Positions 3 through 20,055 of a stretch of DNA of 32,000 bases are shown in pieces. This stretch comes from an uncultured archaeon (GTDB lineage: Archaea; Asgardarchaeota; Thorarchaeia; Thorarchaeales; Thorarchaeaceae): positions 60,001 through 92,000 of the forward strand of contig CAZYLT010000005.1 in NCBI GenBank assembly GCA_964648855.1, in the 5' to 3' direction. Below the pieces are notes generated by a model that was given only the letters and a program-made list of their open reading frames with translations, had not been told where the DNA came from and ran no database searches. Positions within the stretch are counted from its first letter, which is position 1. Every line of letters begins with the position of its first letter. Made by a program: the position numbers and the translations under genes.

Positions 3-3000
3 TATAATAACCAGAAGAACCCATCGACATTCCTGAGTGCATCCAGTGAGCGCGACCTCCGTGACGCATGGGAGAATGATGATAGTGCAACCATGACCTT
101 CACAACGAGTTCGACAGAACCAATAACAATGGATGCAACCATGACCATGGACATCGAGGGCTCTGGTCAGACTCTTGATGAAGATTTGAATGATGGTACT
201 ACATTCTACGCAACAAACGGTACCAATTACGTGGATTGGACTGCTAACGTACTCGTTTCGCCACCAAATAACACTGAAACAATGAATGTGGAGATCAACT
301 ACCCCTTTACCCAATGGAATCCAACAAAAGTCATCAATCCGTTGGGAGCTGAAAAGACATATGGCACCGATTGGGATTATACTGCAGGAACGCTAACCAT
401 CTACTATCCAGCTGTCGATGTATATGGCGTATGGGTTCTTGAGTTTGTTAGCTGGAACTATGTTGAAGATTTACAGTTGGGCGTCAGTGGTCAGCCATTA
501 TCAGACTCCGCAACTCTGAATATCAACGATGATTTGAAATTACGTGCGACCACTCCATGGATACAAAATGCGAGAGCTGGTCTGGTATTGACCGATCCAA
601 CAGGGGCTGTCTGGCATACTGATTACAACACAACTGGGGCTCCTGGTACAACGTGGGATGTACCTTCCTTCCAATATCGATTCCCTCTAACAGTACCGTC
701 CTCCCAAGTAGGTGGCGACGTAACCGATTTCCCTGTGAAGGTAAGCTTTACAGATTCAAATCTCCAAGATACAAGCAAAGTACAAGCATCCGGCAATGAT
801 ATCGTCTTTGTGCAAAACGGAATAGTTCTTTCTCACCAAATTGAGCTGTTTGACCAAACCAATGGTGAACTAGTTGCATGGGTCAAAGCGAATTTGTCCG
901 GCTTAGTTGATACAAATCTATTCATGTATTATGGGAATCCAATTGTGGGTTCTTGTGAGAATCCTGAGGATGTCTGGACAAACAGCTATGATGCAGTGTG
1001 GCATTTGGATGAGGATGTGACCGATGAATCAACCGGTGGTATCCATTATGACTCTACGAGTTCGAATCTTGATGGAACACAAAATGGCAACTCTCGGATA
1101 GCTGGAAAATCTGGGGGATATGCACAATCATTCGACGGAACAAATGACTGGATTGTGATTGACTCTAGTTTGGGATATGATCCAACAGGCGACCTCTCAT
1201 TCTCCGGATGGTTCTATCTCCCTAGTGATTTCAGCAGCTCCTCATCGAGTCTCTTGCTCATGGAGAAGTACCTGAATGGAGACGACAACTTTCATATTGC
1301 ACTTGCAGGTTCTGATTACTCAGAGAGCGGTGTGACTGCTGGTAGCTTGGTCATCGGCATGGAGCTTGGTACGGATGAATATGCAAAGTGGACAAATGAT
1401 TATACATTCTGGGCCTCAGGCTGGTATCATTATACAATCACTATTGACTCTGATAATGTAGCAAATACAAAGCTCTATGTCAATGGTGCAGACGACACTG
1501 CTACAGGGAGTGCTGGCTCAGGAGGTACTCCTAATCCCGCAGATTTGGACTTCTCTGCTGATTGGGGAATTGGCGGAAGGTATGTAGAAGAAACTGCTGA
1601 ATTTCCAAGCAGTGAGGAATTCTTCAATGGAAGAATGGATGAGGTGCGAATCTCCAGCACTTATCGCTCAAGTTCTTGGATAAAAACTGAATATAACAAT
1701 ACAAATAACCCAACTGTTTTCGTACAAAGGGCAAGCGAACAGCAGAAGACCTCTCCTGAACACACATTCACTAAGACTATCGACTCATCTGCCATTGCAG
1801 GAGAATGGACCGCAAGTGTATACTACAACGACAGTGGAGCCTCTGTATCCGAAGCAACAGGACTCTATGAACGCAACTTCATCGTGAAACACGACAGTTC
1901 CCTTACGTTACTTTCGCCAACCGATGCTACATCCGATAAGACCTCTCTCAAAGTCGCCGGAGAACTTCTGCAAATAGAAGTACAGCTCACAGATGATATC
2001 ACAACGGATGGAGTTACTGGGGCTACGGTAAAGGTCAACTGGACTATTTCTGGAACCCCAACCGAAATTACGTTAGATGAATATGATAATGGTCGATATG
2101 GGAAGGTTCTGAATACATCCGACCTTAGTGAGAATAAGAGATGGAGAATCGATATCTGGTCTTCACATATTTACTATAATGATGCCACTGATTACTTCGA
2201 TTTGGACTTGAATCATGAAACTGATTTGACGTATCTGAATGTAGAAACTACTCCCACCGGATTTGATTTCACAGCTACACTTGTCTTCAGAGATGTCTAT
2301 GATGATACTCCAGTTACTGGAGCTGTAATCACTTTCGCAAATGGGACGCCCGTAACTATAGTTGACGAAGGAGCTGGAAGGTACAACATATCGCTCTCTA
2401 CCAGCAGTCTCTCTCTGGGTGACCATTGGTACGAATTCAGGGCATCTACGAGCGGAAGCTTTCTGGACGATGACACAACAAATGTGACCTTCACGTTGAG
2501 AAAACACTATACGGCCGTGAGCGTGCAAGGTGACTTCATCACTCCATACGGTGAAAACACCACAGTGAATGTTATCATTACCGACTTGGACACTGGTAGC
2601 GTGCTTAGCGAAACGAGCTCTATCTCATCATGGACATTTTCTTGGACTGGAGGCTCTGATACTGATACTTCTCTCACAGATTTCAGCTATATCTTGGCTA
2701 CGAATGCATGGAATATCGGAACTGATACGGTGACAATCTCAGTATCCATGTCAGGAGATTACTATAACCCGACCGATTATCTGTTTGATGTTCAAATTAG
2801 GAAGCACTATACTTCAGTGACAATTCTGGGAGATTTACTGAGTCCTCATGGATTTGATACGAATGTTACAGTTGTAATTACTGATGCTGACACCGGGCAG
2901 ATATTATCGAATATAGGCGATGTTTCATCATGGAACTTCGACTGGGGTTTAGGCTCGAATGATGAAACGCCTCCTGAGGATTTCAATTACACATTAAGCT

Positions 3001-6000
3001 CAAGTGCCTGGAATCTCGGTATAACTCAAGTAACGTTCTCTGTAAATATGAGTGGAATCTACGACAATCCCGCAAACTATGAATTCGAAGTAGAAATTAG
3101 AAAACATTATACTTCTGTATCAGTGCAGGGTGATTTCGTTACTCCCTATGGTCAGACTACCGATGTTACTGTCGTCATCACTGACCTAGATACAGGTACA
3201 TTATTAGGTTCCACAATTTCCATATCTTATTGGAATTTCACCTCTAGTAATCCCTCTGTTGATGAAACCTCTCCAACCGATTTTAGTGTGACATTGACTA
3301 CCGATACTTGGAGTCTAGGTATTGAAATTGTAACGCTTTCAGTCACCATGAGCGGAATCTATTATGATCCCGCAGATCACACCTTTGATGTTGAAATAAG
3401 AAGGCACAAAACTGCCGCATCCATCATTGGGGAATTCGTTACTCCTTATGGTCTTACTACTAATGTCACTGTTATCATTACTGACTTGGATACAGGCCAA
3501 CAGCTCTCAGATACAAGCAGCATCTGGTACTGGAATTTCACTTCATCATATAGTCCAATTAATGAAGAAGCCCCCTCTGATTTCAACCTAAGCCTGAGTA
3601 CGGAGAAATGGCTAATCGGCACTCAAACAGTCACCCTTTCTGTCACGATGATTGGATTCTATGATAGTCCTCAGAACATCCAGTTTGACATTCGAATACG
3701 TAAGCATTACACATCGGTAAGCGTATCTGGCAACTTCCTGACTGCGCATGGTTTCGATACCAACCTGACAGTTGTTATCCAAGATACAGACAATGGATCG
3801 GTTCTGGCTACAACAGCGAACGTTTCGTCATGGATTTTCGACTGGGGTACGGCCTCAGATCAAGAAAGCCCTGCCGACTATAGCTACATTCTTGCTACTA
3901 GCTCGTGGGACTTGGGAAAATTCACGATAACTTTGTCAGTGAACATGACCGATATCTATCAGAATCCGAGCGACCACCAATTTGAAGTACAAATTCGAGA
4001 GCATTACACCCAAGTTTCTGTATCCGGTGGCTTGGTGACTCCCTATGGAAATACCACTCCCATTGAGGTTGTAATAACGGACTTGGACACAAACACAGTT
4101 CTCGCAGATGCCAGTGTCATAACCGCATGGTCATTCACATCTACCTACGACCCTCTCATTCCACCTACCGACGATTTTTCAGTCGATCTAAACACAACCG
4201 CTTGGGATGTAGGGACTGAGTCGGTGACTCTCTCAGTCACACTGAGCGGCATTTACTTTACCCCCTCAGACTATGTGTTCAATATCAGAATACGAAGTCT
4301 TGAAACAACTCTCTATCATGAACCTAGCGATTTGCTGTTTCCGACCGGAGATGACTTTGTGATTGTTCTAAGGCTGAATGTGAGCGAGAATGGAATATAC
4401 TATGGCAACCCAATAAATGAACTATCTCAGGGTAATTTCACAGTAAGAAACTCCACTTACACTTATCCTGCAACAATCACATTCCTCGCAGACGGAAGAT
4501 ACAATCTTTCCATTGATGATGTTGGACATTTTGTTGAAGGAAGTTACACAATCACAGTGAGAGTAGACCCTACAAGTTCGCTATATGCCCTAAGCAAAGT
4601 TGTAATCACCTTTGAGTATCAACCCGCGAGGAGTGACCTCACTGCAAACCTCTATACAATCTCAACTCCCTACAATACGAATGCAACGGTGACACTAACT
4701 TATTACGACCTTGACAGGGGTTCCGGAATCACTACTGCTACAATCAACGCAAATATCTCTTGGATATCCTATACACATATTGGCAGTGGTAAGTACGAAG
4801 TGGAAATCGGTGTGGCCGATCTGACCATTGGCTCTCATTATGTCAATCTTACAGCAGATGCGGAAGGTTATACTGCCAGAAGTCTGGTAATCAAAGTAGT
4901 AATAACTAGAATTCATACGGATGCCGAGCCGTCCACAATCTCAATCGATATGCCTGTCGGGAACACCGAGATATTCTATATTGACTTCATCGATTTAGAT
5001 AATGATGTAGCCATTTTCGGCGCTGAAGTAATGCATGTAAGCAATTGGACTGGGTCAACACCAATCAATATAACATGGACTGGTAGCCGATATCGAGTCA
5101 ATTTCACTACAACCGGCGCTGACCAGCTGGGAATCTACCTGATTAGATTCAATTTCAGTAACGGTCTGAATTACCAACCCGCCATTTGCGATGTGGAAGT
5201 TGATATTCGCACTCATATTACAATATTCAATCTTGAAACTGCTGTTGAACCGACCGCTTTCAATGCCCTCATCAATATATCTGTCCGATACTATGACTTC
5301 GATAATAAGGTGGGCATCGATTCAGAACTTGTTGAAGATCATGTTTGGAATGGAACATTGGTTGCCACCACTTTGATTAATGAAGGTGGAGGATATTATA
5401 CAATTCAGATTAATGCAACTCAATTTCCCATCGGAGAGCAAAACTTCATTATCTATTTCAACTGGACTGGCACGGTTCAGCAGTATGAGAACAAGACAAT
5501 TACTGCTTCCGTCAATATTATTGGAGTGGCATCGGAGTTAACCCTCATATCATCCTCGGAACCAACTCCCTATTTTGGCAATATGTCATATACAATCAAA
5601 TATGCTGAGCAAGATAGTGGCGATGGCATAACTAACACAAGTAATCTTGAGTATGGAGATGGCCATGTCTTTATTTACGTAGAATTTGATGGCGTAACCG
5701 TCGATTTATCAAGCATTGCCATCTGGGAAGTAGATTACACAAATAAGCCCGGGCAGTATTCAATTAGATTCAACACCTCAATATTCAGCTCAGTCGGACT
5801 CTTCTACATGAAGGTCTACATCAATTGGTCGAAAGGGGTTGACCCTCAATACACAAATCGTACTGACACAATATCTGTTCGTGTACTGGCTCGTGATACC
5901 CTCATTTCGGTCATTCCTGCTTCATCAACACCATACAATGAGTATGCCGAATTCTCGTTCACATACGAAGATACTCTTGCAAGCGAGGATATTGCAAACT

Positions 6001-9000
6001 CGAGCCAGCTGTCCATTTCTCTTAGCTTGGCATCTTACAGTATTAGTTATGACTCTCCATCTCGGCACTTTACGGTGAGTTTCAATACTAGTCAGTTTGG
6101 ATCACTAGGTCAACAATCGTTTACACTAAATGTAACATGGGCTGGAATTCCGTTCTATGCAAACCGAACGAATCGCGTTGTTTTTGTGACTGTCACAGAC
6201 AGAGATACGGTACTAGACTATCAGGCACCTCCTCCCACCTCTTACCGTGAGAATGTATCATTCACACTCACATGGACTGACATTGCCGGCTCTACATCTT
6301 CAGGAATAGAGGGTGCTAGCATTGTTTTATATGATGGTAGCAATCCGATATCTGCAACCTATTACTCAGTTTCAGAATCTGGTGCCGGTGAGTACGATAT
6401 TGAACTGAATACCACCTATAAGACTGAACCTGGATACTACTCATTGAGAGTCGAAATTTCCTCGGCGGAGTTCTATTACTACACAGTAGATGCTGATAGG
6501 ACATTCAACATCCGGCAGAGGGTTACAATTCTTACCTCGGATCCGGTTAGCGATGTCCCGTATAATTCACCAATTGAAGTTGTCTTATATTATCAGGACT
6601 TGTTGAGCCTTGGCATAATTGGAAATGATTCATCTCTGGTTTCATTAGAAATAGTGACAGCAGGCGATTGGATATTCACAATATCTTGGCGACCGAGTAG
6701 AGGAAATTACCTATTGCTCATTGAAACTTCAAATCAAGCTGGTCTGGAAATTGGTGTTGAATATGAGCTACAACTCAACATGAGTTATGCATATACTGAT
6801 CCCTACTATAGATGGGATGACCTAACCATCGCCTATCAGCTTCGATATAGGGCATCCTCCTTAGAACAGACGGAGGCACCCATTCAAACGCCCTACCTTG
6901 ACTATTCCAATTTCACGTTGTACTACAGTGATGCAGATGCAAGCACCGGAATTGATGGCGGTGACATATATATCCTGAAGGGAGGCACAAGCCTCACTCA
7001 AGGTACTGATTTTGTATACAGTGTTAAGGCAGGAGGGTATTATTACGTATCAGTCAACAGTACAGCCTTGGATGAACTCGGTGGAACACAAATCACAGTC
7101 TGGGCAAACTGGACTGGAGGAACACCCTACCATAATAATGCAAGTCTGTCATTGACGTTGACTGTTACTCGACGAGCTACTAATGTTGTAGTATTGGTAT
7201 CTCCATCACGGACAAACTATCTTGAAGATGTGGTATTTGTTGTTGCATTTACTGATTTAGGAACAAATAACGCCCTAAGTACGGATAAGAGTTTGATTAC
7301 AATCTACAATGAGGGCGTTGCTCTTGATGCAGTTGATTTCACTTTCTCTCAGCTGGGTAGTAATTACAACTATGAGATTACCATCAATTCTTCTACTCTG
7401 TCAGCACAGCTCGCTTCAGAGCTCAATATAACAGTCTTTGTGGATTGGCCAAATGCACCGAATTACTATCAAGACGACTCAACATCTATACGGGTTACAA
7501 TCATCGCTCGAGAAACTGCATTGTCGATAGACAAACCTCAACGAACCGCATACGACGAGAATGCTACACTCAGTTTCCAGTTCTTGGACACAACAAACAT
7601 ACCTGAGCAATTGATAGAAGACAATCCCTCTCTCTCAGTTATCACAAATCTGTCCGCGATTCCTCAGATTACTTATGACTCTGGAAGTAAAGCTTTCAGT
7701 ATTTCATTTAATACTGCTCAATTTGGATATGTTGGTGTCCATTACTTCTATATCAATGTGACTTGGACTGGCTCGCCCTTCTACGGGAATAAGACATTAC
7801 AGATTTCATCTGTAAACGTGATATATAGGGAAACTCAAGCGAATTTCGAGGCCCCAGCGCCAACGCCGTTCAACGATAATGCCACATTCACAGTAACCTA
7901 TCTCGATATTGCTGGAGAAACAGAATTTGGGATTTCAGATGCAACTCTGACCATGTACTACTCTGGGGCTCAGATTCCATCAGAGAACTATAAGGTGACA
8001 CCAGATGGCTCTGGTGGATTTTCGGTGGAGCTATTCACCGGCTTCTTCACAGAACCTGGTTCATATGAACTCAATGCGAGCTTGGTATACACGGGAACAG
8101 AGTTCAAATCTGATGCCTCTGCGATTAGGAGTCTCTTGGTTCGATTCAGAAACACCATTCTGTCCGCAGATCCGGTTGGCTCCATCGGATACGGGACTCA
8201 AATGGAAGTTATATTAGAATTCCAAGATCAGCTAACACTAGATGCCATTGGTAATTCCTCCGATGAAACCACACTGACAATCCTTAATGATACTGCTACG
8301 CCATGGGTCTTCACCGTTCAGTGGCAACCATCAACCGAAACATACAGTCTGGTAATAGACACTGATGGTCAATCTTTGAGTGTTGATGTAAGCTATAGTC
8401 TGCGTGTAAATATGACCTATGTCTACCAGTCTCCCTACTACCGCCATGATGATACCTATATTTTCTTCTCAATACGAAAGCGGACATCACTGCTCAGTGT
8501 ACCTGAGCCCCCAACGCCTACTGCTTTCAATGAGCTTGCTGTTTTCGAATTATACTACGAGGATACCGATGTGAACCAAGGAATATCGGGGGCTACAATC
8601 CTAATAGATTCACTTGTCGAAGGCACTGATTTCTTTGTGTCTACAGGGGATGCTGGCACATACTTCATTTCACTGAACACATCCTCTCTTGGTGCTCCCG
8701 GTTCATATATTATCACAGTCACTGCAGATTGGCTCGATTCTGCTGCGCCATATTACAAAGACGCTGTACGTAATGTGACGGCATCTGTGACTCGAAGAAG
8801 TGCTGAGGTTGAAATTCTATCTCCTCCTGGTCAAGCTAGATACTTAGATAACCTGACTTTCACTTTTGCATACACCGATACAGCAGGAAGTAGCGAAACA
8901 CGCATATCCATAACGTCCAGTGATATTCAAATCTATGCCAATGGGACGCTCCTTCTCAACTCAGAATTCACATTGACCGAGACCACAAACGAAGCTTTCC

Positions 9001-12000
9001 GGGTCAGCATCAATACGACGGTGTTGGCTGCGACACTCGTTACTGATTACAATATTACCATTATCGTTGATTGGGCTGATGGTGTTGCCCCATACTATGA
9101 GGATGACCAAACCGAGTTATCGGTTAGCAGTGTAGGTCGTTCGATGTCTGTTACTCTCGGGCAAATCCAAACCACTCCTATAGATGATAACATGACAATT
9201 TCCTTCACTCTCGTTGATATCGCAAATGGCGCTCCTGTATCTGACGCCGTGATAATATTTGACTGTGCGAGAGCGGACATCACATTGTCCGAGGGCTCTT
9301 CATACTGGCTTTATGAAGGCACTGGAATATTGGTAGGTCACTACAATATAACAATTCGAACTTCAGCTTTGAAGGGAGTGGATGACTATGATTTCGACAT
9401 AGACATTCATTGGAACCAATCCATGAGTCCCTATTACAACAACCTTTCAAGAATCACGGTAACTGGTTCAGTTGATTTAATTTGGGCCTCTCTCCAAAGT
9501 GACTCTCCATCACCATCATCCGTACAAATCAGTGACAATGTTACTGTTGTTGTTTATTATACGGATCTCGATCACGGAGATGAGGGAATTGCTGGTGCAG
9601 AGGTATATGTTTCCTACCTCTCAACCGGTCTGATTCCAAGCTTCTTGAGCATAAACAAATCCATACCAGGCGTTTATGAGATTACTCTTAGCACAATAGA
9701 TTTGGATGACACTGGCGCCTATACATTGAATATAACTCTAGCCAAGTCAAAATATGAGAAGAAAGAAGTAAACCCCTCATTCACTGTTTCCGTGATTAGC
9801 ACCATTTTGACTCCTGACGAAGATACCATTGAAGACATACTCTGGACTACGGAGGTTACCATCACAGTGTCATACGAGGACTTACTACATCTCAACCTTA
9901 CACCCGGTGCGAATGTTACATATTCATGGGATGGTGGCACAGGCTCATTCAATGAGATTGGTTCGAGTGGTGAATACTATGCAACAATTGATACAACCCT
10001 TGCTAACTCAGGCACACGCGTAGTAACAATAACTGCTGAGAAGGACAAGTTCAGAACTTCTATTACCACTGTGGCTCTAATTGTTCTGACTCTGCCGTCA
10101 GAGATGGTAGCTTACGAACCTGCTGAACTTGTGAATGAGATTCCTCGTGGGAGTCCAGTTGATATCACTGTCTATCTGAATGATACCTACAATCTCCAAC
10201 CAATTCAGGATTCAATTGTATCAACTGTATACGCCACGTTTGAAGGAACTGACTATCCACTTACCTATAACGAGACCCCGGGCTATTATTATACTACTAT
10301 ACCTGGAGCGGATACAGAACTCCCAATCAGTTTCTACAATATTCGTGTTACTGCTCAGATGAATAACTATGATCCAGCCAGCTTCTCATTCAAGATTGAC
10401 CTATTGCAGACGTTAACTAGTTTGGAGCTCTATGATGATACCCAAGAAACGATGAATGCGGTTTTCTTCGAACAAGTTGAATTCACTCTCAACTTCACAC
10501 AGACAGTGAATGGAGATCCTATCGACATAGCAGAAGTCACCTGGTCATTATCTGACTCTGACCTGAAAGGCAACTTCACAAACTTGGGTGGCGGCATTTG
10601 GCATGTTGTCTTTGAGACTGCTAATGCCGGATATGGGACCTGGGGCTTTACCTTCAGGGGAATCCCAGACGATCCTGTCTTAGCTGCAACCACCTCAACG
10701 TTGACTCTTACCATAAAGAGGATTCCGACTCAGGCTGTTAATCCGACTCCTCTTACAGTTGTTTGGGGTTGGACGGGGAACATCAGTTTCCTCTTCTATG
10801 ATACGTACTTTGATGTTGGTATCTCAGGTGCCTTAGCGGAGTACTCTTGGGGTCCAATCAAGGGCAATGCTACAGACCTAGGAAATGGCACATACCTCGT
10901 TCCTGTTGATACAAGCATCCTGAGTACGGGGGACCGTCACTCTCTTCAAATTGCATTCTCAAAAGAGAATTATCAAGAGAGCAACGGGGGGCTCCAGATA
11001 GCGGTGCAAGAAATACCAACAGAGTTGTTCATTGCCCCTCAAGAGAATGACAGAATGATGATTGAGGGTAGTAAGACCAATCTTCAAGTGCCAATAAATG
11101 ACACTATCACTATTCGACTGTTCTACAATGATACAGACAATACTGAGGGATTTGTGGGTGGGATTGAAGAGGCATATCTTCTACCAGAGAGCTCGATAAT
11201 TGGTAGGCAGACATTCCAGGGACAGCTTGATTTCGAACTGATATCCGTAGGTGGCGGCTGGTATCAAATCGAATTTAATAGCAATGAAGCTCGCTATTAT
11301 ACCGCTGGAACATGGATTGATGGTGCCGAATTCAATTACTATGTAGCTATTAAGCTCGAGAATAGAACAATGGTTGAAACCTCCATACGAATCACCGTTA
11401 TTGAGAAACCCTCAGAATTAGTATTAGACCCTGAACTAGGTCTAACTCAGCCAGTTGTTTCGATGTATTATGGAGAAACCATACCGGTCACAGTATACTA
11501 TAATGATACCTGGCACAACTGGGGCGTTGATGACGCAACAATCATTGGGCAAATAGATATTGAGTCGCTTGTATTAGAGAATTGGGAGGAAAGCGGCGAA
11601 GGGTTCTATATTCTGTACCTAAGTGCTCCTGCTCCTATTGTGCCTGTTGGAATCGACCGAACCTCGGTAATCGTTACTGTCAACGCCAATAAGAGCACAC
11701 ATGCAGATGGACAACTGCTCCTGCGAGTGAACATCATCCCCACCGAATCACAAACCACAATGAGCACTGCAATCTCTTGGGGTACCCCTATCAGCTTGCT
11801 ATTGCTCTTCCTAGTGGTTCTATGGGTAAAGGTCTTTAGCGTGCCAAAGCGACTTCGGCAGATCAACGGTCAGATCAAGTCGCTAAGTAAGGGCAAAGTG
11901 CCAAAGCCAATTGAAGAGGCCAAGGACCGCCAAGAATTGGTTACCGACCTCTTCAATGACACCTATGAGAAGGTGGAAATAACGCGGCGTCCGGATGAGC

Positions 12001-12569
12001 TTCCTGCTGAGGCAGTGGATGTCGAGGTTCCCGAGATGGGTGAACTTCTCGTCCAGCTATCTATACTCACCAACTTGAGCTCTCAAGAACTCGATGAGTT
12101 CAAGGCAGACATCTCGAAGATGAAGCTCAGTGAACAAGCTGCCTTTGTGAAAGAAGTCATCTATCAAGAGGCGATACGTGCTGCTCGACGGGAGGACACA
12201 ACGGTTGAGGAAATTGTTGAAAAAGTTCGCAATGACGCAAAACGTCAGATTAGTGGTGAAGAGATAGAACGCATCTCCGCTCCTGAAGAGGCAGTGCCTG
12301 ACCGTGTGCTCCTCTCGGAAGAGGATGAAATCGAAGAGCCCACTGAATTCGAAGTAGAAGGTCCTGACGACGTTCTGGAAGAGGACATTTCTGGAGCCAA
12401 GGAGATACTGCCTGATGACCGACTTAGCCCATTCGAGCTTGAGGAACTAAAGAAGGACCTTGAGAAGAGAGGTGTACCTGCTCACGAGATTGATACGATA
12501 ATTGATCAGGCAAAGAACCTGCCGCGTGAACTGGTGGAGGAGCTTGTACGGAGTCTAGGCGAAGAGTAG
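3..12569 (+). CDS. Giant single-pass cell-surface protein (DUF2341 + LamG/ConA-like module, many Ig-like repeats, C-terminal TM, cytoplasmic tail); 5'-partial
   Basis: The frame is open from nt 3 (YNNQKNPSTFLSASSER...) through the ATG at 93, so the real start lies upstream of the window. DUF2341-type motifs (DFPV..., DIVF..., VAWVK..., MYYGNP) and LamG motifs (VWHLDE ... FNGRMDEVRIS) are present. The repeats are Thr/Ser/Tyr-rich with many N-x-S/T sequons. Hydrophobic WGTPISLLLLFLVVLWV is followed by basic residues. Confidence 0.92.
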   Translation, partial: YNNQKNPSTFLSASSERDLRDAWENDDSATMTFTTSSTEPITMDATMTMDIEGSGQTLDEDLNDGTTFYATNGTNYVDWTANVLVSPPNNTETMNVEINYPFTQWNPTKVINPLGAEKTYGTDWDYTAGTLTIYYPAVDVYGVWVLEFVSWNYVEDLQLGVSGQPLSDSATLNINDDLKLRATTPWIQNARAGLVLTDPTGAVWHTDYNTTGAPGTTWDVPSFQYRFPLTVPSSQVGGDVTDFPVKVSFTDSNLQDTSKVQASGNDIVFVQNGIVLSHQIELFDQTNGELVAWVKANLSGLVDTNLFMYYGNPIVGSCENPEDVWTNSYDAVWHLDEDVTDESTGGIHYDSTSSNLDGTQNGNSRIAGKSGGYAQSFDGTNDWIVIDSSLGYDPTGDLSFSGWFYLPSDFSSSSSSLLLMEKYLNGDDNFHIALAGSDYSESGVTAGSLVIGMELGTDEYAKWTNDYTFWASGWYHYTITIDSDNVANTKLYVNGADDTATGSAGSGGTPNPADLDFSADWGIGGRYVEETAEFPSSEEFFNGRMDEVRISSTYRSSSWIKTEYNNTNNPTVFVQRASEQQKTSPEHTFTKTIDSSAIAGEWTASVYYNDSGASVSEATGLYERNFIVKHDSSLTLLSPTDATSDKTSLKVAGELLQIEVQLTDDITTDGVTGATVKVNWTISGTPTEITLDEYDNGRYGKVLNTSDLSENKRWRIDIWSSHIYYNDATDYFDLDLNHETDLTYLNVETTPTGFDFTATLVFRDVYDDTPVTGAVITFANGTPVTIVDEGAGRYNISLSTSSLSLGDHWYEFRASTSGSFLDDDTTNVTFTLRKHYTAVSVQGDFITPYGENTTVNVIITDLDTGSVLSETSSISSWTFSWTGGSDTDTSLTDFSYILATNAWNIGTDTVTISVSMSGDYYNPTDYLFDVQIRKHYTSVTILGDLLSPHGFDTNVTVVITDADTGQILSNIGDVSSWNFDWGLGSNDETPPEDFNYTLSSSAWNLGITQVTFSVNMSGIYDNPANYEFEVEIRKHYTSVSVQGDFVTPYGQTTDVTVVITDLDTGTLLGSTISISYWNFTSSNPSVDETSPTDFSVTLTTDTWSLGIEIVTLSVTMSGIYYDPADHTFDVEIRRHKTAASIIGEFVTPYGLTTNVTVIITDLDTGQQLSDTSSIWYWNFTSSYSPINEEAPSDFNLSLSTEKWLIGTQTVTLSVTMIGFYDSPQNIQFDIRIRKHYTSVSVSGNFLTAHGFDTNLTVVIQDTDNGSVLATTANVSSWIFDWGTASDQESPADYSYILATSSWDLGKFTITLSVNMTDIYQNPSDHQFEVQIREHYTQVSVSGGLVTPYGNTTPIEVVITDLDTNTVLADASVITAWSFTSTYDPLIPPTDDFSVDLNTTAWDVGTESVTLSVTLSGIYFTPSDYVFNIRIRSLETTLYHEPSDLLFPTGDDFVIVLRLNVSENGIYYGNPINELSQGNFTVRNSTYTYPATITFLADGRYNLSIDDVGHFVEGSYTITVRVDPTSSLYALSKVVITFEYQPARSDLTANLYTISTPYNTNATVTLTYYDLDRGSGITTATINANISWISYTHIGSGKYEVEIGVADLTIGSHYVNLTADAEGYTARSLVIKVVITRIHTDAEPSTISIDMPVGNTEIFYIDFIDLDNDVAIFGAEVMHVSNWTGSTPINITWTGSRYRVNFTTTGADQLGIYLIRFNFSNGLNYQPAICDVEVDIRTHITIFNLETAVEPTAFNALINISVRYYDFDNKVGIDSELVEDHVWNGTLVATTLINEGGGYYTIQINATQFPIGEQNFIIYFNWTGTVQQYENKTITASVNIIGVASELTLISSSEPTPYFGNMSYTIKYAEQDSGDGITNTSNLEYGDGHVFIYVEFDGVTVDLSSIAIWEVDYTNKPGQYSIRFNTSIFSSVGLFYMKVYINWSKGVDPQYTNRTDTISVRVLARDTLISVIPASSTPYNEYAEFSFTYEDTLASEDIANSSQLSISLSLASYSISYDSPSRHFTVSFNTSQFGSLGQQSFTLNVTWAGIPFYANRTNRVVFVTVTDRDTVLDYQAPPPTSYRENVSFTLTWTDIAGSTSSGIEGASIVLYDGSNPISATYYSVSESGAGEYDIELNTTYKTEPGYYSLRVEISSAEFYYYTVDADRTFNIRQRVTILTSDPVSDVPYNSPIEVVLYYQDLLSLGIIGNDSSLVSLEIVTAGDWIFTISWRPSRGNYLLLIETSNQAGLEIGVEYELQLNMSYAYTDPYYRWDDLTIAYQLRYRASSLEQTEAPIQTPYLDYSNFTLYYSDADASTGIDGGDIYILKGGTSLTQGTDFVYSVKAGGYYYVSVNSTALDELGGTQITVWANWTGGTPYHNNASLSLTLTVTRRATNVVVLVSPSRTNYLEDVVFVVAFTDLGTNNALSTDKSLITIYNEGVALDAVDFTFSQLGSNYNYEITINSSTLSAQLASELNITVFVDWPNAPNYYQDDSTSIRVTIIARETALSIDKPQRTAYDENATLSFQFLDTTNIPEQLIEDNPSLSVITNLSAIPQITYDSGSKAFSISFNTAQFGYVGVHYFYINVTWTGSPFYGNKTLQISSVNVIYRETQANFEAPAPTPFNDNATFTVTYLDIAGETEFGISDATLTMYYSGAQIPSENYKVTPDGSGGFSVELFTGFFTEPGSYELNASLVYTGTEFKSDASAIRSLLVRFRNTILSADPVGSIGYGTQMEVILEFQDQLTLDAIGNSSDETTLTILNDTATPWVFTVQWQPSTETYSLVIDTDGQSLSVDVSYSLRVNMTYVYQSPYYRHDDTYIFFSIRKRTSLLSVPEPPTPTAFNELAVFELYYEDTDVNQGISGATILIDSLVEGTDFFVSTGDAGTYFISLNTSSLGAPGSYIITVTADWLDSAAPYYKDAVRNVTASVTRRSAEVEILSPPGQARYLDNLTFTFAYTDTAGSSETRISITSSDIQIYANGTLLLNSEFTLTETTNEAFRVSINTTVLAATLVTDYNITIIVDWADGVAPYYEDDQTELSVSSVGRSMSVTLGQIQTTPIDDNMTISFTLVDIANGAPVSDAVIIFDCARADITLSEGSSYWLYEGTGILVGHYNITIRTSALKGVDDYDFDIDIHWNQSMSPYYNNLSRITVTGSVDLIWASLQSDSPSPSSVQISDNVTVVVYYTDLDHGDEGIAGAEVYVSYLSTGLIPSFLSINKSIPGVYEITLSTIDLDDTGAYTLNITLAKSKYEKKEVNPSFTVSVISTILTPDEDTIEDILWTTEVTITVSYEDLLHLNLTPGANVTYSWDGGTGSFNEIGSSGEYYATIDTTLANSGTRVVTITAEKDKFRTSITTVALIVLTLPSEMVAYEPAELVNEIPRGSPVDITVYLNDTYNLQPIQDSIVSTVYATFEGTDYPLTYNETPGYYYTTIPGADTELPISFYNIRVTAQMNNYDPASFSFKIDLLQTLTSLELYDDTQETMNAVFFEQVEFTLNFTQTVNGDPIDIAEVTWSLSDSDLKGNFTNLGGGIWHVVFETANAGYGTWGFTFRGIPDDPVLAATTSTLTLTIKRIPTQAVNPTPLTVVWGWTGNISFLFYDTYFDVGISGALAEYSWGPIKGNATDLGNGTYLVPVDTSILSTGDRHSLQIAFSKENYQESNGGLQIAVQEIPTELFIAPQENDRMMIEGSKTNLQVPINDTITIRLFYNDTDNTEGFVGGIEEAYLLPESSIIGRQTFQGQLDFELISVGGGWYQIEFNSNEARYYTAGTWIDGAEFNYYVAIKLENRTMVETSIRITVIEKPSELVLDPELGLTQPVVSMYYGETIPVTVYYNDTWHNWGVDDATIIGQIDIESLVLENWEESGEGFYILYLSAPAPIVPVGIDRTSVIVTVNANKSTHADGQLLLRVNIIPTESQTTMSTAISWGTPISLLLLFLVVLWVKVFSVPKRLRQINGQIKSLSKGKVPKPIEEAKDRQELVTDLFNDTYEKVEITRRPDELPAEAVDVEVPEMGELLVQLSILTNLSSQELDEFKADISKMKLSEQAAFVKEVIYQEAIRAARREDTTVEEIVEKVRNDAKRQISGEEIERISAPEEAVPDRVLLSEEDEIEEPTEFEVEGPDDVLEEDISGAKEILPDDRLSPFELEELKKDLEKRGVPAHEIDTIIDQAKNLPRELVEELVRSLGEE
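669..1740 (+). other. DUF2341 + laminin-G/concanavalin-A-like module within the giant protein
   Basis: FQYRFPLTV...DFPVKV...ELVAWVKANL...MYYGNP, then YDAVWHLDE...WYHYTIT...KLYVNG...FNGRMDEVRISSTYRSSSWIKTEYNN. Confidence 0.8.
2499..4292 (+). repeat. Six tandem 99-100 aa Ig-like repeats
   Basis: The R-x-H-[YK]-T motif recurs at 2499, 2799, 3099, 3399, 3699 and 3996, with the next boundary at 4293. Consensus RKHYTxVSVxGxxxTPYGxxTxVxVVITDLDTG...W..F...W..G...VTLSVxMxGxYxxP. Confidence 0.93.
5889..9134 (+). repeat. Two copies of a ~540-aa five-domain super-repeat (5889-7505, 7506-9134)
   Basis: Domain pairs occur in the same order: SFNTSQFG/SFNTAQFG, WTDIAG/YLDIAG, TILTSDPV/TILSADPV, DPYYRWDD/SPYYRHDD, PNYYQDDST/APYYEDDQT. 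Confidence 0.85.
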
Positions 12570-12573
12570 GACA

Positions 12574-13344
12574 CTAGTCCTTCTCCTCGCTGTCTTGGTC
12601 AAAATATGAGAGGGGCAGAGTTGTTCCAAATCTAGGTGGCTTTGCCTTTGCCGATCTTCTTACTGGGTGTTGCGGATGTTTGGCTAGAGCATATTTGAAA
12701 TAGGACTTCGATTCCTCAACATGAACATGTACTTGAGCACAGCTTGCTAAGGCCTTTCCGCCTGCAGGTAAATGCCGATTTTGCTCCGAAGGTTGAGCTG
12801 AAATTATAGTGAAAATTCCCCTTTGCAATGTGAAGGTCATGATTTTGGTGGCCATGTGTGTTAATTGCTGTAAGCCCTCACCCGATATGCCCTCTTTGAT
12901 GAATAGATTTGGCAGCCCTGTAACAAAAAGGACTCTTGCTGGAACTCTGTCAAAGAATCTGTCTATCTGATTCATTACTAAGTCATAAGTTTGTGAGGAA
13001 TTGAATGCGCGCGATATATAGATTCTATCCATCACTGCCTCGGGTTCAAGATCCAATTCATAAGAGATGTCCGTGAGTTGGTCGATATGAATAATGTTGG
13101 CACTGTCGATTATGATTGATGAACTTTGGATACCTCCCTTGTCCTTTGGGAGTTGTGCCTGAACTGCTATTCTAAACAAATCATCATGCAAACCTCTATC
13201 GCCGTAGAAGAGATGCACAAGCCCGCTTTCAAGACCGCCATCAAGCAATCTGTCAAGTGCAGGATTTCCAGTACCAAGTTTTAATCTTACGACCTCATCT
13301 GCTGTTCGAAAGCCCGGCCTTAGGCCCTGATTGATTTTTCTCAT
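12574..13344 (-). CDS. RadA/Rad51-family paralog with degenerate ATPase motifs
   Basis: TGNPALDRLLDGGLESG, IIIDSAN, MDRIYISRAFNSSQ and GGKALAS align to the RadA core. Walker A is replaced by YGDRGLHD and Walker B by LFVTG. The N-terminal GFRTADE (FxxA) motif is present. Confidence 0.85.
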   Translation of the reverse strand: MRKINQGLRPGFRTADEVVRLKLGTGNPALDRLLDGGLESGLVHLFYGDRGLHDDLFRIAVQAQLPKDKGGIQSSSIIIDSANIIHIDQLTDISYELDLEPEAVMDRIYISRAFNSSQTYDLVMNQIDRFFDRVPARVLFVTGLPNLFIKEGISGEGLQQLTHMATKIMTFTLQRGIFTIISAQPSEQNRHLPAGGKALASCAQVHVHVEESKSYFKYALAKHPQHPVRRSAKAKPPRFGTTLPLSYFDQDSEEKD

Positions 13345-17882: not shown

Positions 17883-18060
17883 CTACAATTTCTCCATGGT
17901 TTCAGGCTCGTGCAGATTCTAGTCAAAACAAATAGGCTTACCTATAGCTCAAATAATGCTTCCAACGGGTTTTCGTGGATGCTTATTTCGGCGCATATTT
18001 ATGCAATCTCTCTTCGGTAAAGATGGGTTCACGAGACCTCTTTCGAGGACTGGATTAACC

Positions 18061-20055
18061 ATGGCAAGCAGAAAAACAAAGGCCGCCCTTCTCGTCATCA
18101 TAGTAGTGTCAACCATATTCATAGGCTCATTTCTACTAAATCGACTGTTTCCAGCCGGTGAAGATGGCGGCAGCCAAGCCCAGATTGAGCCTCATCCCTA
18201 TAATGCACTGAACTGGTGGGATGTCGCCAAAGAGATTGCCGAAACTGGAGATATGTTCACACCTCTAGGTAGAATCGTAGGTATTGGAAATAGACATCTT
18301 GAGAACCCAAACACAGGATACTATGATGCAGCTGATTATCTGATAGGCTTGCTTGGCGGCTGGGGTCTCGAGGCAGGGTATTTTGGGGACCACGATTCGG
18401 TTCTGAGCCGTCAGAAAGGATATGGAAACGATAGCAGGGCAATTGTCTTCGGCGCACATCTTGACTCCAATGAAAATGGGGTCGGAGTAAATCAGAATGC
18501 TGGTGGATGTGCCGTGGTCACTATGATTGCAGATGTCCTCAGGAATTATCGTCTTCCTGTTGACATCTATTACGCTTACTTCTCGTACAATACAGTATTC
18601 TTGGACGATCAGAAAAGAGTACGCGCAATGTATGGCTCAAAGGAAATCGCACAACACTTCGTTGATGAAGATATTGATGTTATGGCATTCTATAACTTCG
18701 ATGAGCTTCTGTTTTACGATGATAACCAAGCTGAAACTGAATCGCTGGTTGCAGAGCACCATTCTCCCGAGAGCAGAGGCTATCATAAAACACAGTATTT
18801 GGCTGAGCTTATGCAGGCATTTCTGAGAAACTCGGGACATAACTTCATGTCTATAGATGACGAAATTGGCACTCAGACCGATCACTGGGCCTTCTGGGAC
18901 CGTGGTCTACCTGCTGTGAATATCAAGAGTGGTCACAGAATAGATCCGGAATTTCCACCAGACGATTCTCTCTATAGCGAAGACCATAATCGTGACCATG
19001 CGTTTGAACTGGGCAAGGCCGCCGCTGCGCTGGCAGTCTACTTGGCTTCAAGCGGAAATGGAGAGGCGATATCATTCAAACTTGAACAGCCAATTCCGCC
19101 GGGAAGCTCATCCCAATTCCGTACGGTGTTGTCTCGCGGTCAGACTATCCAACTGACTAGCATATCCAACTCAACAGAACCCATATCTCTCAGAATCCAG
19201 GCTGGCAATGGTACGATTTTCCCTGCTACGGGTCTCGATAACGGAAATGTCACTCTGACCACCGAGCAGGCGGCGGGCTTAGGCCCCCTCACGGTGACCA
19301 TCGCAAACATAGGGAATACGACTATCTACATCAAAGCTCACATATTGTATCACAACGACCATGATGGAAATGGCATCGTGGATGCGGAGCAGTATGCTTG
19401 GGATGAACCAGACCCACCGCTTGATTGGGATAAGGACGGTCTCTCGGACAGAAATGAGGAGGTATATGGAACCGACATTTTTGTTTCCGATACCGATAGT
19501 GATGGTATGCCAGACGGCTTCGAAGTAATTTACGACCTGAATCCGCTCTTGGATGATAGCGATGGTGATTTGGATGAAGATGGGCTCGATAATATCCGGG
19601 AGAAACAACTGGGAACCGCCGCAAACAACAATGATACGGATTCAGACGGCATGCCCGATGGGTGGGAAGTATTGTATCTAACAGACCCACTAGCTGATGA
19701 TTCGTTAGAAGACTTTGATAGAGATAATCTCACTAATATAGAGGAATATCAATATGGCGCCGACCCGTATCTACCTGATTCTGATTTTGATGGTGTGAGC
19801 GATGCGGAAGAAGTTAGCAGGGGGATGGACCCGTCCAATGATGATACAGATAATGACGGTCTTCGAGATCATCTCGAGCTGATTGAGGGACTCGACCCAC
19901 TATCCCCTGATTATGATATTGATTTAGTACCTGATGGGCCGGACCATAACCCCAAAATCAATGGCCTTCTCATGATATTGGGACTTGCAGCAATTCCGGT
20001 CATTATCGGGTCAATATTCTTCTATCGACGACTCTACAAATCCTCAGGCGAGTAG
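18061..20055 (+). CDS. Membrane-anchored M28 peptidase-fold protein (degenerate active site) with DxDxDG Ca-binding (TSP3-like) repeats
   Basis: The likely start is ATG 18061 (MASRKTK + hydrophobic stretch). IVFGAHLDS, NFDEL and TDHWAFWDRGLPAV give the M28 fold. Acidic repeats and a C-terminal TM (LLMILGLAAIPVIIGSIFFY-RR) follow. Confidence 0.85.
   Translation: MASRKTKAALLVIIVVSTIFIGSFLLNRLFPAGEDGGSQAQIEPHPYNALNWWDVAKEIAETGDMFTPLGRIVGIGNRHLENPNTGYYDAADYLIGLLGGWGLEAGYFGDHDSVLSRQKGYGNDSRAIVFGAHLDSNENGVGVNQNAGGCAVVTMIADVLRNYRLPVDIYYAYFSYNTVFLDDQKRVRAMYGSKEIAQHFVDEDIDVMAFYNFDELLFYDDNQAETESLVAEHHSPESRGYHKTQYLAELMQAFLRNSGHNFMSIDDEIGTQTDHWAFWDRGLPAVNIKSGHRIDPEFPPDDSLYSEDHNRDHAFELGKAAAALAVYLASSGNGEAISFKLEQPIPPGSSSQFRTVLSRGQTIQLTSISNSTEPISLRIQAGNGTIFPATGLDNGNVTLTTEQAAGLGPLTVTIANIGNTTIYIKAHILYHNDHDGNGIVDAEQYAWDEPDPPLDWDKDGLSDRNEEVYGTDIFVSDTDSDGMPDGFEVIYDLNPLLDDSDGDLDEDGLDNIREKQLGTAANNNDTDSDGMPDGWEVLYLTDPLADDSLEDFDRDNLTNIEEYQYGADPYLPDSDFDGVSDAEEVSRGMDPSNDDTDNDGLRDHLELIEGLDPLSPDYDIDLVPDGPDHNPKINGLLMILGLAAIPVIIGSIFFYRRLYKSSGE
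19357..19950 (+). repeat. About nine DxDxDG-type acidic repeats
   Basis: DHDGNG, DWDKDG, DTDSDG, DLDEDG, DTDSDG, DFDRDN, DSDFDG, DTDNDG, DYDIDL, spaced ~20-25 aa apart. Confidence 0.85.

Follow-up and report, generated by a model that had tools for sequence, protein, structure and literature searches.

The question raised by this locus is what kind of protein is encoded by the very long reading frame at the start of the window, i.e. the 32,000-nucleotide stretch of a Thorarchaeia genome that was analysed, and to what its long C-terminal tail might be coupled. Within the window, a single stop-free frame (3..12569, + strand), open at its 5' end, supplies the 3' 4,188 codons of a type-I membrane protein gene. 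On the genome contig the gene starts at C5:57435, which is 2,566 nt upstream of the window, and the whole gene (C5:57435-72569) encodes 5,044 aa, the longest ORF in the assembly (3.11 Mb, 62 contigs, 94.6% complete). A GGAGG site precedes the start codon, and the part outside the window comprises a basic-hydrophobic, signal-peptide-like N-terminus, approximately 510 aa without a Pfam match and a first DUF2341+LamG head. A frameshift or assembly artefact was ruled out, and the gene is taken to be real, because homologs of 4,900-5,600 aa exist in other genomes. With the frame, the signal stretch, a single membrane span and an inside tail all found, the giant type-I membrane protein proposed in the initial annotation was upheld. 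It should also be noted that a DUF2334 (deacetylase-like) gene lies directly upstream (L001:11342-12037, +), and that two homolog loci (L026 and L032) are flanked by a similar gene.

Two DUF2341+LamG units were detected with Pfam, at residues 579-853 and about 1120-1416. The second of these falls within the window (792..1682, +), with both the DUF2341 (PF10102, E 4.8e-6) and the LamG/ConA-like Laminin_G_3 (PF13385, E 1.3e-12) matches above cut-off. The lectin-like head of the initial annotation is therefore present, but as two heads rather than one, the first lying upstream of the window. The N-terminal 510 aa and the region between the heads gave no family match in Pfam or NCBIfam, the first head gave no match against PDB sequences, and no catalytic domain was found.

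The heads are followed by a stalk (1956..11699, +) of Ig-like repeats of ~100 aa. An iterated repeat HMM gave 28 matches across residues 1508-4755 together with three double-length gaps, and the number of domains is therefore about 31, in agreement with the earlier estimate by eye of some 30 beta-rich domains. Six near-alike 100-aa repeats (2502..4304, +), with self-BLAST periods of 100-500 and E-values down to 1e-35, have the sequence signature of a recent tandem expansion. Three repeats (9459..10430, +) were modelled as tandem all-beta sandwiches (pLDDT 97.2, pTM 0.84), so the beta-sandwich fold on which the initial annotation depended was borne out for these, and the remaining ~28 repeats are probably Ig-like as well, through the shared HMM. 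The best fold matches of the three repeats were titin Ig, FdeC, invasin and MpIBP, with NCAM and Dscam also matched, mostly at 8-18% identity, and at such low identity the matches speak for a generic fold only. The ectodomain carries 101 N-glycosylation sequons against 56.7 +/- 6.4 expected, an approximately two-fold excess (shuffle maximum 75 in 1000 shuffles), with 90 against 40 +/- 5 in shuffles for the stalk. An AglB/STT3 gene is present in the same genome, and the ectodomain is probably glycosylated. Across homologs, the number of heads ranges from 0 to 5 and the length from 2,500 to 6,500 aa, with ectodomain segments of the long homologs mostly at 25-60% identity.

A sequon-dense stalk of this kind could belong to a structural coat or glycocalyx, in which paralogs would form an irregular, non-crystalline envelope and the adaptor described below would merely anchor, sort or space them, with no part in recognition or signalling. 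Asgard envelopes with irregular surface densities and tower-like extensions of 112 +/- 33 nm have been described (10.1101/2025.07.22.663070, in its accessible part; PMC9834061), Lokiarchaeum ossiferum has complex surface proteins and lacks an ordered S-layer (PMC9834061), the S-layer domains SlaB and Sap are also among the Ig-like fold matches of the stalk repeats, and the family is near-universal in Thorarchaeia. The variation in head number and length, on the other hand, fits diversification for ligand binding better than a uniform coat, and the linkage of the adaptor to GTPase genes suggests regulation; a coat was consequently judged unlikely. As regards archaeal S-layer proteins (SlaB; PGF-CTERM), Ig-like domains, sequons and a C-terminal membrane anchor are shared, whereas the lectin-fold heads and the extreme length of the giant are not. 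Furthermore, PGF-CTERM/ArtA S-layer glycoproteins end in a PGF motif, a membrane span and a short basic end, while the giant has no PGF and continues in a conserved tail of 243 aa.

The membrane span is a single transmembrane helix (11781..11843, +), which is also a helix in the model. KD hydropathy showed one strong internal segment (2.42), with 1.75 for the signal and no more than 1.53 elsewhere. One K/R residue is found on the N-terminal side of the helix against seven on the C-terminal side, and the tail is therefore cytoplasmic, the topology not being the reverse of that assumed originally. In the model, the helix is followed by an amphipathic helix, a second helix and a helical module (M1); a disordered linker then leads to M2, a module of three helices. 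The juxtamembrane segment (11844..12032, +; 70% identity to the query among homologs) carries the motif P-x-x-[VLI]-R...K..P...R and is, from its profile and a complex model, the predicted adaptor docking site; P4804, R4808 and R4832 are among its conserved residues. M1 with the next helix (12036..12251, +) is the best-conserved block (82%) and lies outside the predicted adaptor interface. The acidic linker (12258..12407, +; 21%) is predicted to be disordered, with pLDDT <50 in parts, and the terminal M2 (12429..12566, +) is conserved at 68%.

The tail query (171 aa) matched 80 of the 85 other family genomes, every one of the 80 having 1-8 matches; these sit at the ends of frames of up to 6,560 aa, often as several paralogs per genome. 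A long tail conserved among homologs, as the survey of homologs had been expected to show, was thereby confirmed, its blocks reaching 68-82%. Among 1.84 billion representatives the tail profile found just 158 matches, and those with names are all Asgard, the named tail homologs being mostly Ca. Thorarchaeota (two of the matches, P0237 and P0238, are weak and look like chance). No Pfam family and no PDB sequence match were found for the tail query. Fold searches of the tail gave no Foldseek match at E <= 0.001, generic helical bundles with VIA (best Z 5.9) and no usable match in the Atlas, and such missing matches do not prove a new fold. Two tandem tail paralogs of about 2,590 and 2,550 aa were also found on another contig of the genome (L047:3826-19445 = G000:C8:75826-91445), with a shortened form of the tail and without DUF2341/LamG similarity. 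One paralog subfamily has four tandem M2 modules (L051, L055 and L063; P0111, P0113, P0122 and P0132).

M1 and M2 could be aligned over 19 columns (probability 48%, E 2e-4), and a duplication is plausible from the sequences, though not established. RecX_HTH1 weakly matched 13 of 87 tails (best E 0.0018), the fold searches giving no clear match, and directly downstream of the giant gene lies a convergent RadA/Rad51-like gene (12574..13344, −) with a degenerate Walker A (G-D-R for G-K-T) and no N-terminal domain, a neighbour that recurs in 25 of the 30 top loci. On one reading, M1 and M2 would be RecX-like modules that tether the inactive RadA neighbour to the membrane, as might happen in DNA uptake. 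This was considered very improbable, as the genes are convergent, the loci come mostly from one orthologous lineage, no RadA-like neighbour accompanies the paralogs that have these modules, and MobC and Bap31 families match the tails equally weakly. The RadA-like gene is probably a syntenic neighbour outside the system.

Weak matches to the tail share a motif that begins at the end of the membrane span, and in which P-x-x-[VLI]-R is followed by a basic helix and then by K-x-x-P and a conserved R. A profile of this motif was positive in 288 of 400 Asgard genomes, including nearly all Thor, Loki, Hermod and Odin-type genomes. It was found in 1 of 83 genomes of families f7-f13 (f8, f10, f11 and f13 are identified as Heimdallarchaeota by one genome each; f7, f9 and f12 are without a direct name) and in 0 of 5 of f30 (Borrarchaeum/Sifarchaeia). 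Some Loki/Hel proteins contain two units of membrane span and motif per chain (P0219, P0223, P0230, P0234 and P0236) and are apparently two surface proteins fused in tandem. Short motif-bearing frames also occur: in the present genome a 171-aa membrane protein (G000:C5:38275-38802, +), 19 kb upstream of the start of the giant gene, carries the motif (E 2.4e-6) without an ectodomain and may act as a decoy for the adaptor or simply anchor it to the membrane, and similar short frames were seen in G001 and G398.

The gene directly after motif-bearing giants in Loki, Odin and Atabeya loci encodes a protein of ~380 aa that starts with a longin-type W-D-x-x-x-G pattern and has putative winged-helix units, residues 267-335 giving weak HTH/TFIIE Pfam matches. 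From this pattern its N-terminus is read as longin-like. A profile of this putative adaptor was positive in 311 of 400 Asgard genomes, among them all 288 motif-positive ones, while only 3 of 83 genomes of f7-f13 have it and it is nearly absent from f30 too. As related genomes are not independent, this co-occurrence amounts to a few independent losses. Ten families have motif and adaptor genes side by side (f1, f2, f4, f6, f13, f21, f26, f28, f29 and f33). In G084, the lone motif-positive genome of the Heimdall group, they lie 91 bp apart on one contig, and in the cultured L. ossiferum the adaptor NEF87_001535 follows a giant of 2,295 aa. In addition, 32 long fusion proteins were found, in all 32 of which the motif stands ~100 aa ahead of the adaptor domain, with weak per-domain motif scores (E 1e-8 to 0.025 in this set); several of these fusions carry LamG or DUF2341 heads. 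In one further genome, an adaptor copy with one internal TAG (G286:C128:2500-3555), 69 bp after a motif, is a possible broken gene or former fusion.

Three full-length adaptor paralogs are encoded in the Thorarchaeia genome (contigs C1, C5 and C12), all beside or near a longin-GTPase gene. The C1 adaptor (C1:192137-193321) is located just upstream of another giant of 2,338 codons, which is followed by the longin-GTPase; this cassette (G000:C1:181590-193321, −) also includes three coiled-coil genes, and its giant has a weak motif and an acidic tail. Downstream of the C12 adaptor (C12:44248-45390) lies the gene for an acidic-tailed longin-Arf-like GTPase; adaptors of this type are 83-91% identical across the family and the GTPase gene is kept downstream in most loci. 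The C5 adaptor (C5:43488-44630), a divergent copy, is found directly before its longin-GTPase at a point 13 kb upstream from the giant gene. Adaptor and GTPase are arranged head to head with a coiled-coil gene of the EAP30/Vps36 family, ESCRT-II-like in kind (G000:C5:42644-47072).

Longin and GTPase families work in eukaryotic trafficking, and the adaptor-GTPase pair on C5, 13 kb upstream and oriented divergently from the EAP30/Vps36-family gene, would suit a receptor for nutrient capture or endocytic-type cargo. The LamG heads, being lectin-fold, would catch polymers or particles, and the tail would serve as a sorting signal for adaptor, GTPase or ESCRT-linked machinery that clusters or buds the membrane. 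Since no catalytic domain was found, and since the ESCRT-II-like neighbour adjoins the most divergent adaptor paralog in a synteny known from one genome, such a role seems rather improbable.

The giant gene itself has no adaptor or GTPase neighbour, and among the 30 top Thor loci an adaptor was found within 1.5 kb in none, so that pairing in trans rests on a complex model. Residues 18-166 of the tail (alignment A2) were modelled with the C12 adaptor, the sole paralog used. The pair scored 0.80 against 0.00 for the best of three controls. Of 80 solved complexes, 58 attain the mark set for such scores, as do 2 of the 110 mismatched pairs, counts that apply roughly to alignments made in-house. 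At least 80% of contacts are shared between the model runs, and the partner pLDDT is at least 78. In the predicted interface, tail positions 28-90 (the Asgard-wide motif with the next helix and strand) face adaptor residues 147-377, leaving the first 130 residues of the adaptor and M1 outside the listed interface. The true adaptor paralog is not fixed by this, because close cousins of a partner can pass the complex test, and the interface residues of the adaptor are not more conserved than the rest in distant homologs (0.23 against 0.27). The model thus predicts that the tail docks on the C12 adaptor encoded at an unlinked site. Coupling to cytoplasmic factors, which had been conjectured from the length of the tail, has in this way gained a candidate adaptor, backed by co-occurrence, gene adjacency, fusions and the controlled model.

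The favoured reading, held with fair though limited confidence, is that of an adhesin- or receptor-like giant glycoprotein docked to an adaptor-GTPase module. The stalk would hold the heads roughly 140 nm away from the cell (31 domains of ~4.6 nm, a spacing implied by the accessible part of Nobs et al., 10.1101/2025.07.22.663070), where they may bind glycans or surfaces. The ~60 residues below the membrane would bind the winged-helix half of the ~380-aa adaptor, for which C12:44248-45390 is the best candidate, leaving its N-terminal longin-like domain free to pair with the longin-fused small GTPase. One near-invariant adaptor could serve several paralogs with variable ectodomains, M1 and M2 may bind a second partner or mediate oligomerisation, and the GTPase link might act in the placing and turnover of the giants or in relaying a contact signal. 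Adhesion and signalling are likewise deduced, as are a ligand for the heads and contact between adaptor and GTPase, and the reach to partner cells and the relevance to syntrophic contacts and protrusions raised in the initial annotation are conjectural. The higher identity of the tail blocks (68-82%) than of the ectodomain (mostly 25-60%) was counted in favour of an inner docking site. Counted against the favoured reading were the rarity of glycosylation in P. syntrophicum (PMC11284389) and the finding that persistent cell contact seemed not to be obligate in L. ossiferum (PMC9834061). A bolder proposal, doubtful on balance, is an outside-in receptor system in most Asgard, in which variable, lectin-tipped giants would use one juxtamembrane motif to recruit an NPRL2-like adaptor, which would serve a longin-fused small GTPase as its GEF or GAP. 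In Thorarchaeia the system would have become uncoupled, with a single near-invariant adaptor shared by many receptors, and a second helical module for docking would have been gained.

The initial annotation had likened the layout to that of cadherin and IgSF receptors. A type-I layout, a beta-sandwich ectodomain and an adaptor-binding tail (here predicted) are indeed shared with these metazoan receptors, and the analogy stood to that extent, but the defining motifs are absent and the anchor motif was not detected in nearly all Heimdallarchaeia genomes. The cadherin calcium motifs DxNDxxP and LDRE gave 0 matches in 5,044 aa, and there was no Cadherin Pfam match. Cadherin_C, the catenin-binding domain, was not among the matches listed for the 87 tails, and a PDB sequence match was likewise not found. 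As to IgSF, the three modelled repeats have the Ig-like sandwich fold, and NCAM, Dscam and titin matched the stalk at 9-15% identity, but the B-F cysteine pair is absent, since the entire 5,044-aa protein has 4 cysteines. The giant is therefore a member of neither family and the likeness is one of analogy only. With the bacterial adhesins FdeC and invasin and the RTX adhesin MpIBP, a tandem Ig-like extender is shared (top fold matches, Z 10.5-11.6). The anchor of these adhesins is a beta-barrel or a retention module for type I secretion, whereas the giant has a single pass and a structured cytoplasmic tail, with no beta-barrel or RTX/type I secretion module matched in Pfam or NCBIfam.

A giant Ig-like stalk is an already known kind of Asgard protein. 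According to the accessible text of Nobs et al. (2025; 10.1101/2025.07.22.663070), LOKIASV2_19760 of Nerearchaeum marumarumayae is a protein of 5,416 aa in which 54 domains are fibronectin-like, and tower-like extensions of 112 nm are seen on the cells. From that description, a signal sequence, tens of Fn/Ig-like domains, a membrane span and a length of >5,000 aa are common to both proteins, and the giant has each of the features by which that text recognises Asgard adhesin-like proteins (signal sequence, Fn/Ig-like repeats, membrane span). The giant differs in its DUF2341+LamG heads and its Thor-type tail with M1 and M2, and for LOKIASV2_19760 the same text describes no conserved cytoplasmic motif or partner. 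The adaptor in turn resembles, by description, NPRL2/NPRL3 of GATOR1 and the Asgard NPRL2-like proteins in its W-D-x-x-x-G longin-type hairpin, putative C-terminal winged helices and small-GTPase link, though no Pfam NPR2 match was found. At the GP motif, which together with the arginine finger makes up the GAP site of NPRL2/3, the C1 adaptor has GP and the C12 adaptor GA. In the accessible parts of the sources, NPRL2-like proteins are reported from most Thor MAGs with no link to surface proteins described (10.1101/2020.10.19.343400), and they are tied to nutrient signalling, not to surface-protein tails (10.1101/2020.10.19.343400; PMC12290439).

What appears to be new here is that a giant gene is unlinked from the adaptor and yet its tail is modelled onto the near-invariant Thor copy, and that the Thor tail, by its sequence, seems to add the conserved modules M1 and M2 to the Asgard-wide motif. 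No paper on the tail motif or on its pairing with the adaptor was found in the literature, by locus tags either, in a search drawn mostly from outside subscription journals. Cryo-ET has revealed unexplained surface structures on Asgard cells, and for the numerous longin proteins and small GTPases of these archaea few partners are known. Made up of 60 tail residues and an adaptor of 380 aa, the pair is small, soluble and testable, and, if true, would connect the surface of the cell with GTPase switches in a prokaryote that is close archaeal kin of the eukaryotes. With the queries used, motif and adaptor are nearly absent from Heimdallarchaeia, which speaks for parallel invention and not for a direct ancestor of animal adhesion receptors. 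Aside from the giant gene, the window also encodes an M28 peptidase with bacterial TSP3 repeats (17956-20055, +), which is probably a secreted or surface enzyme.
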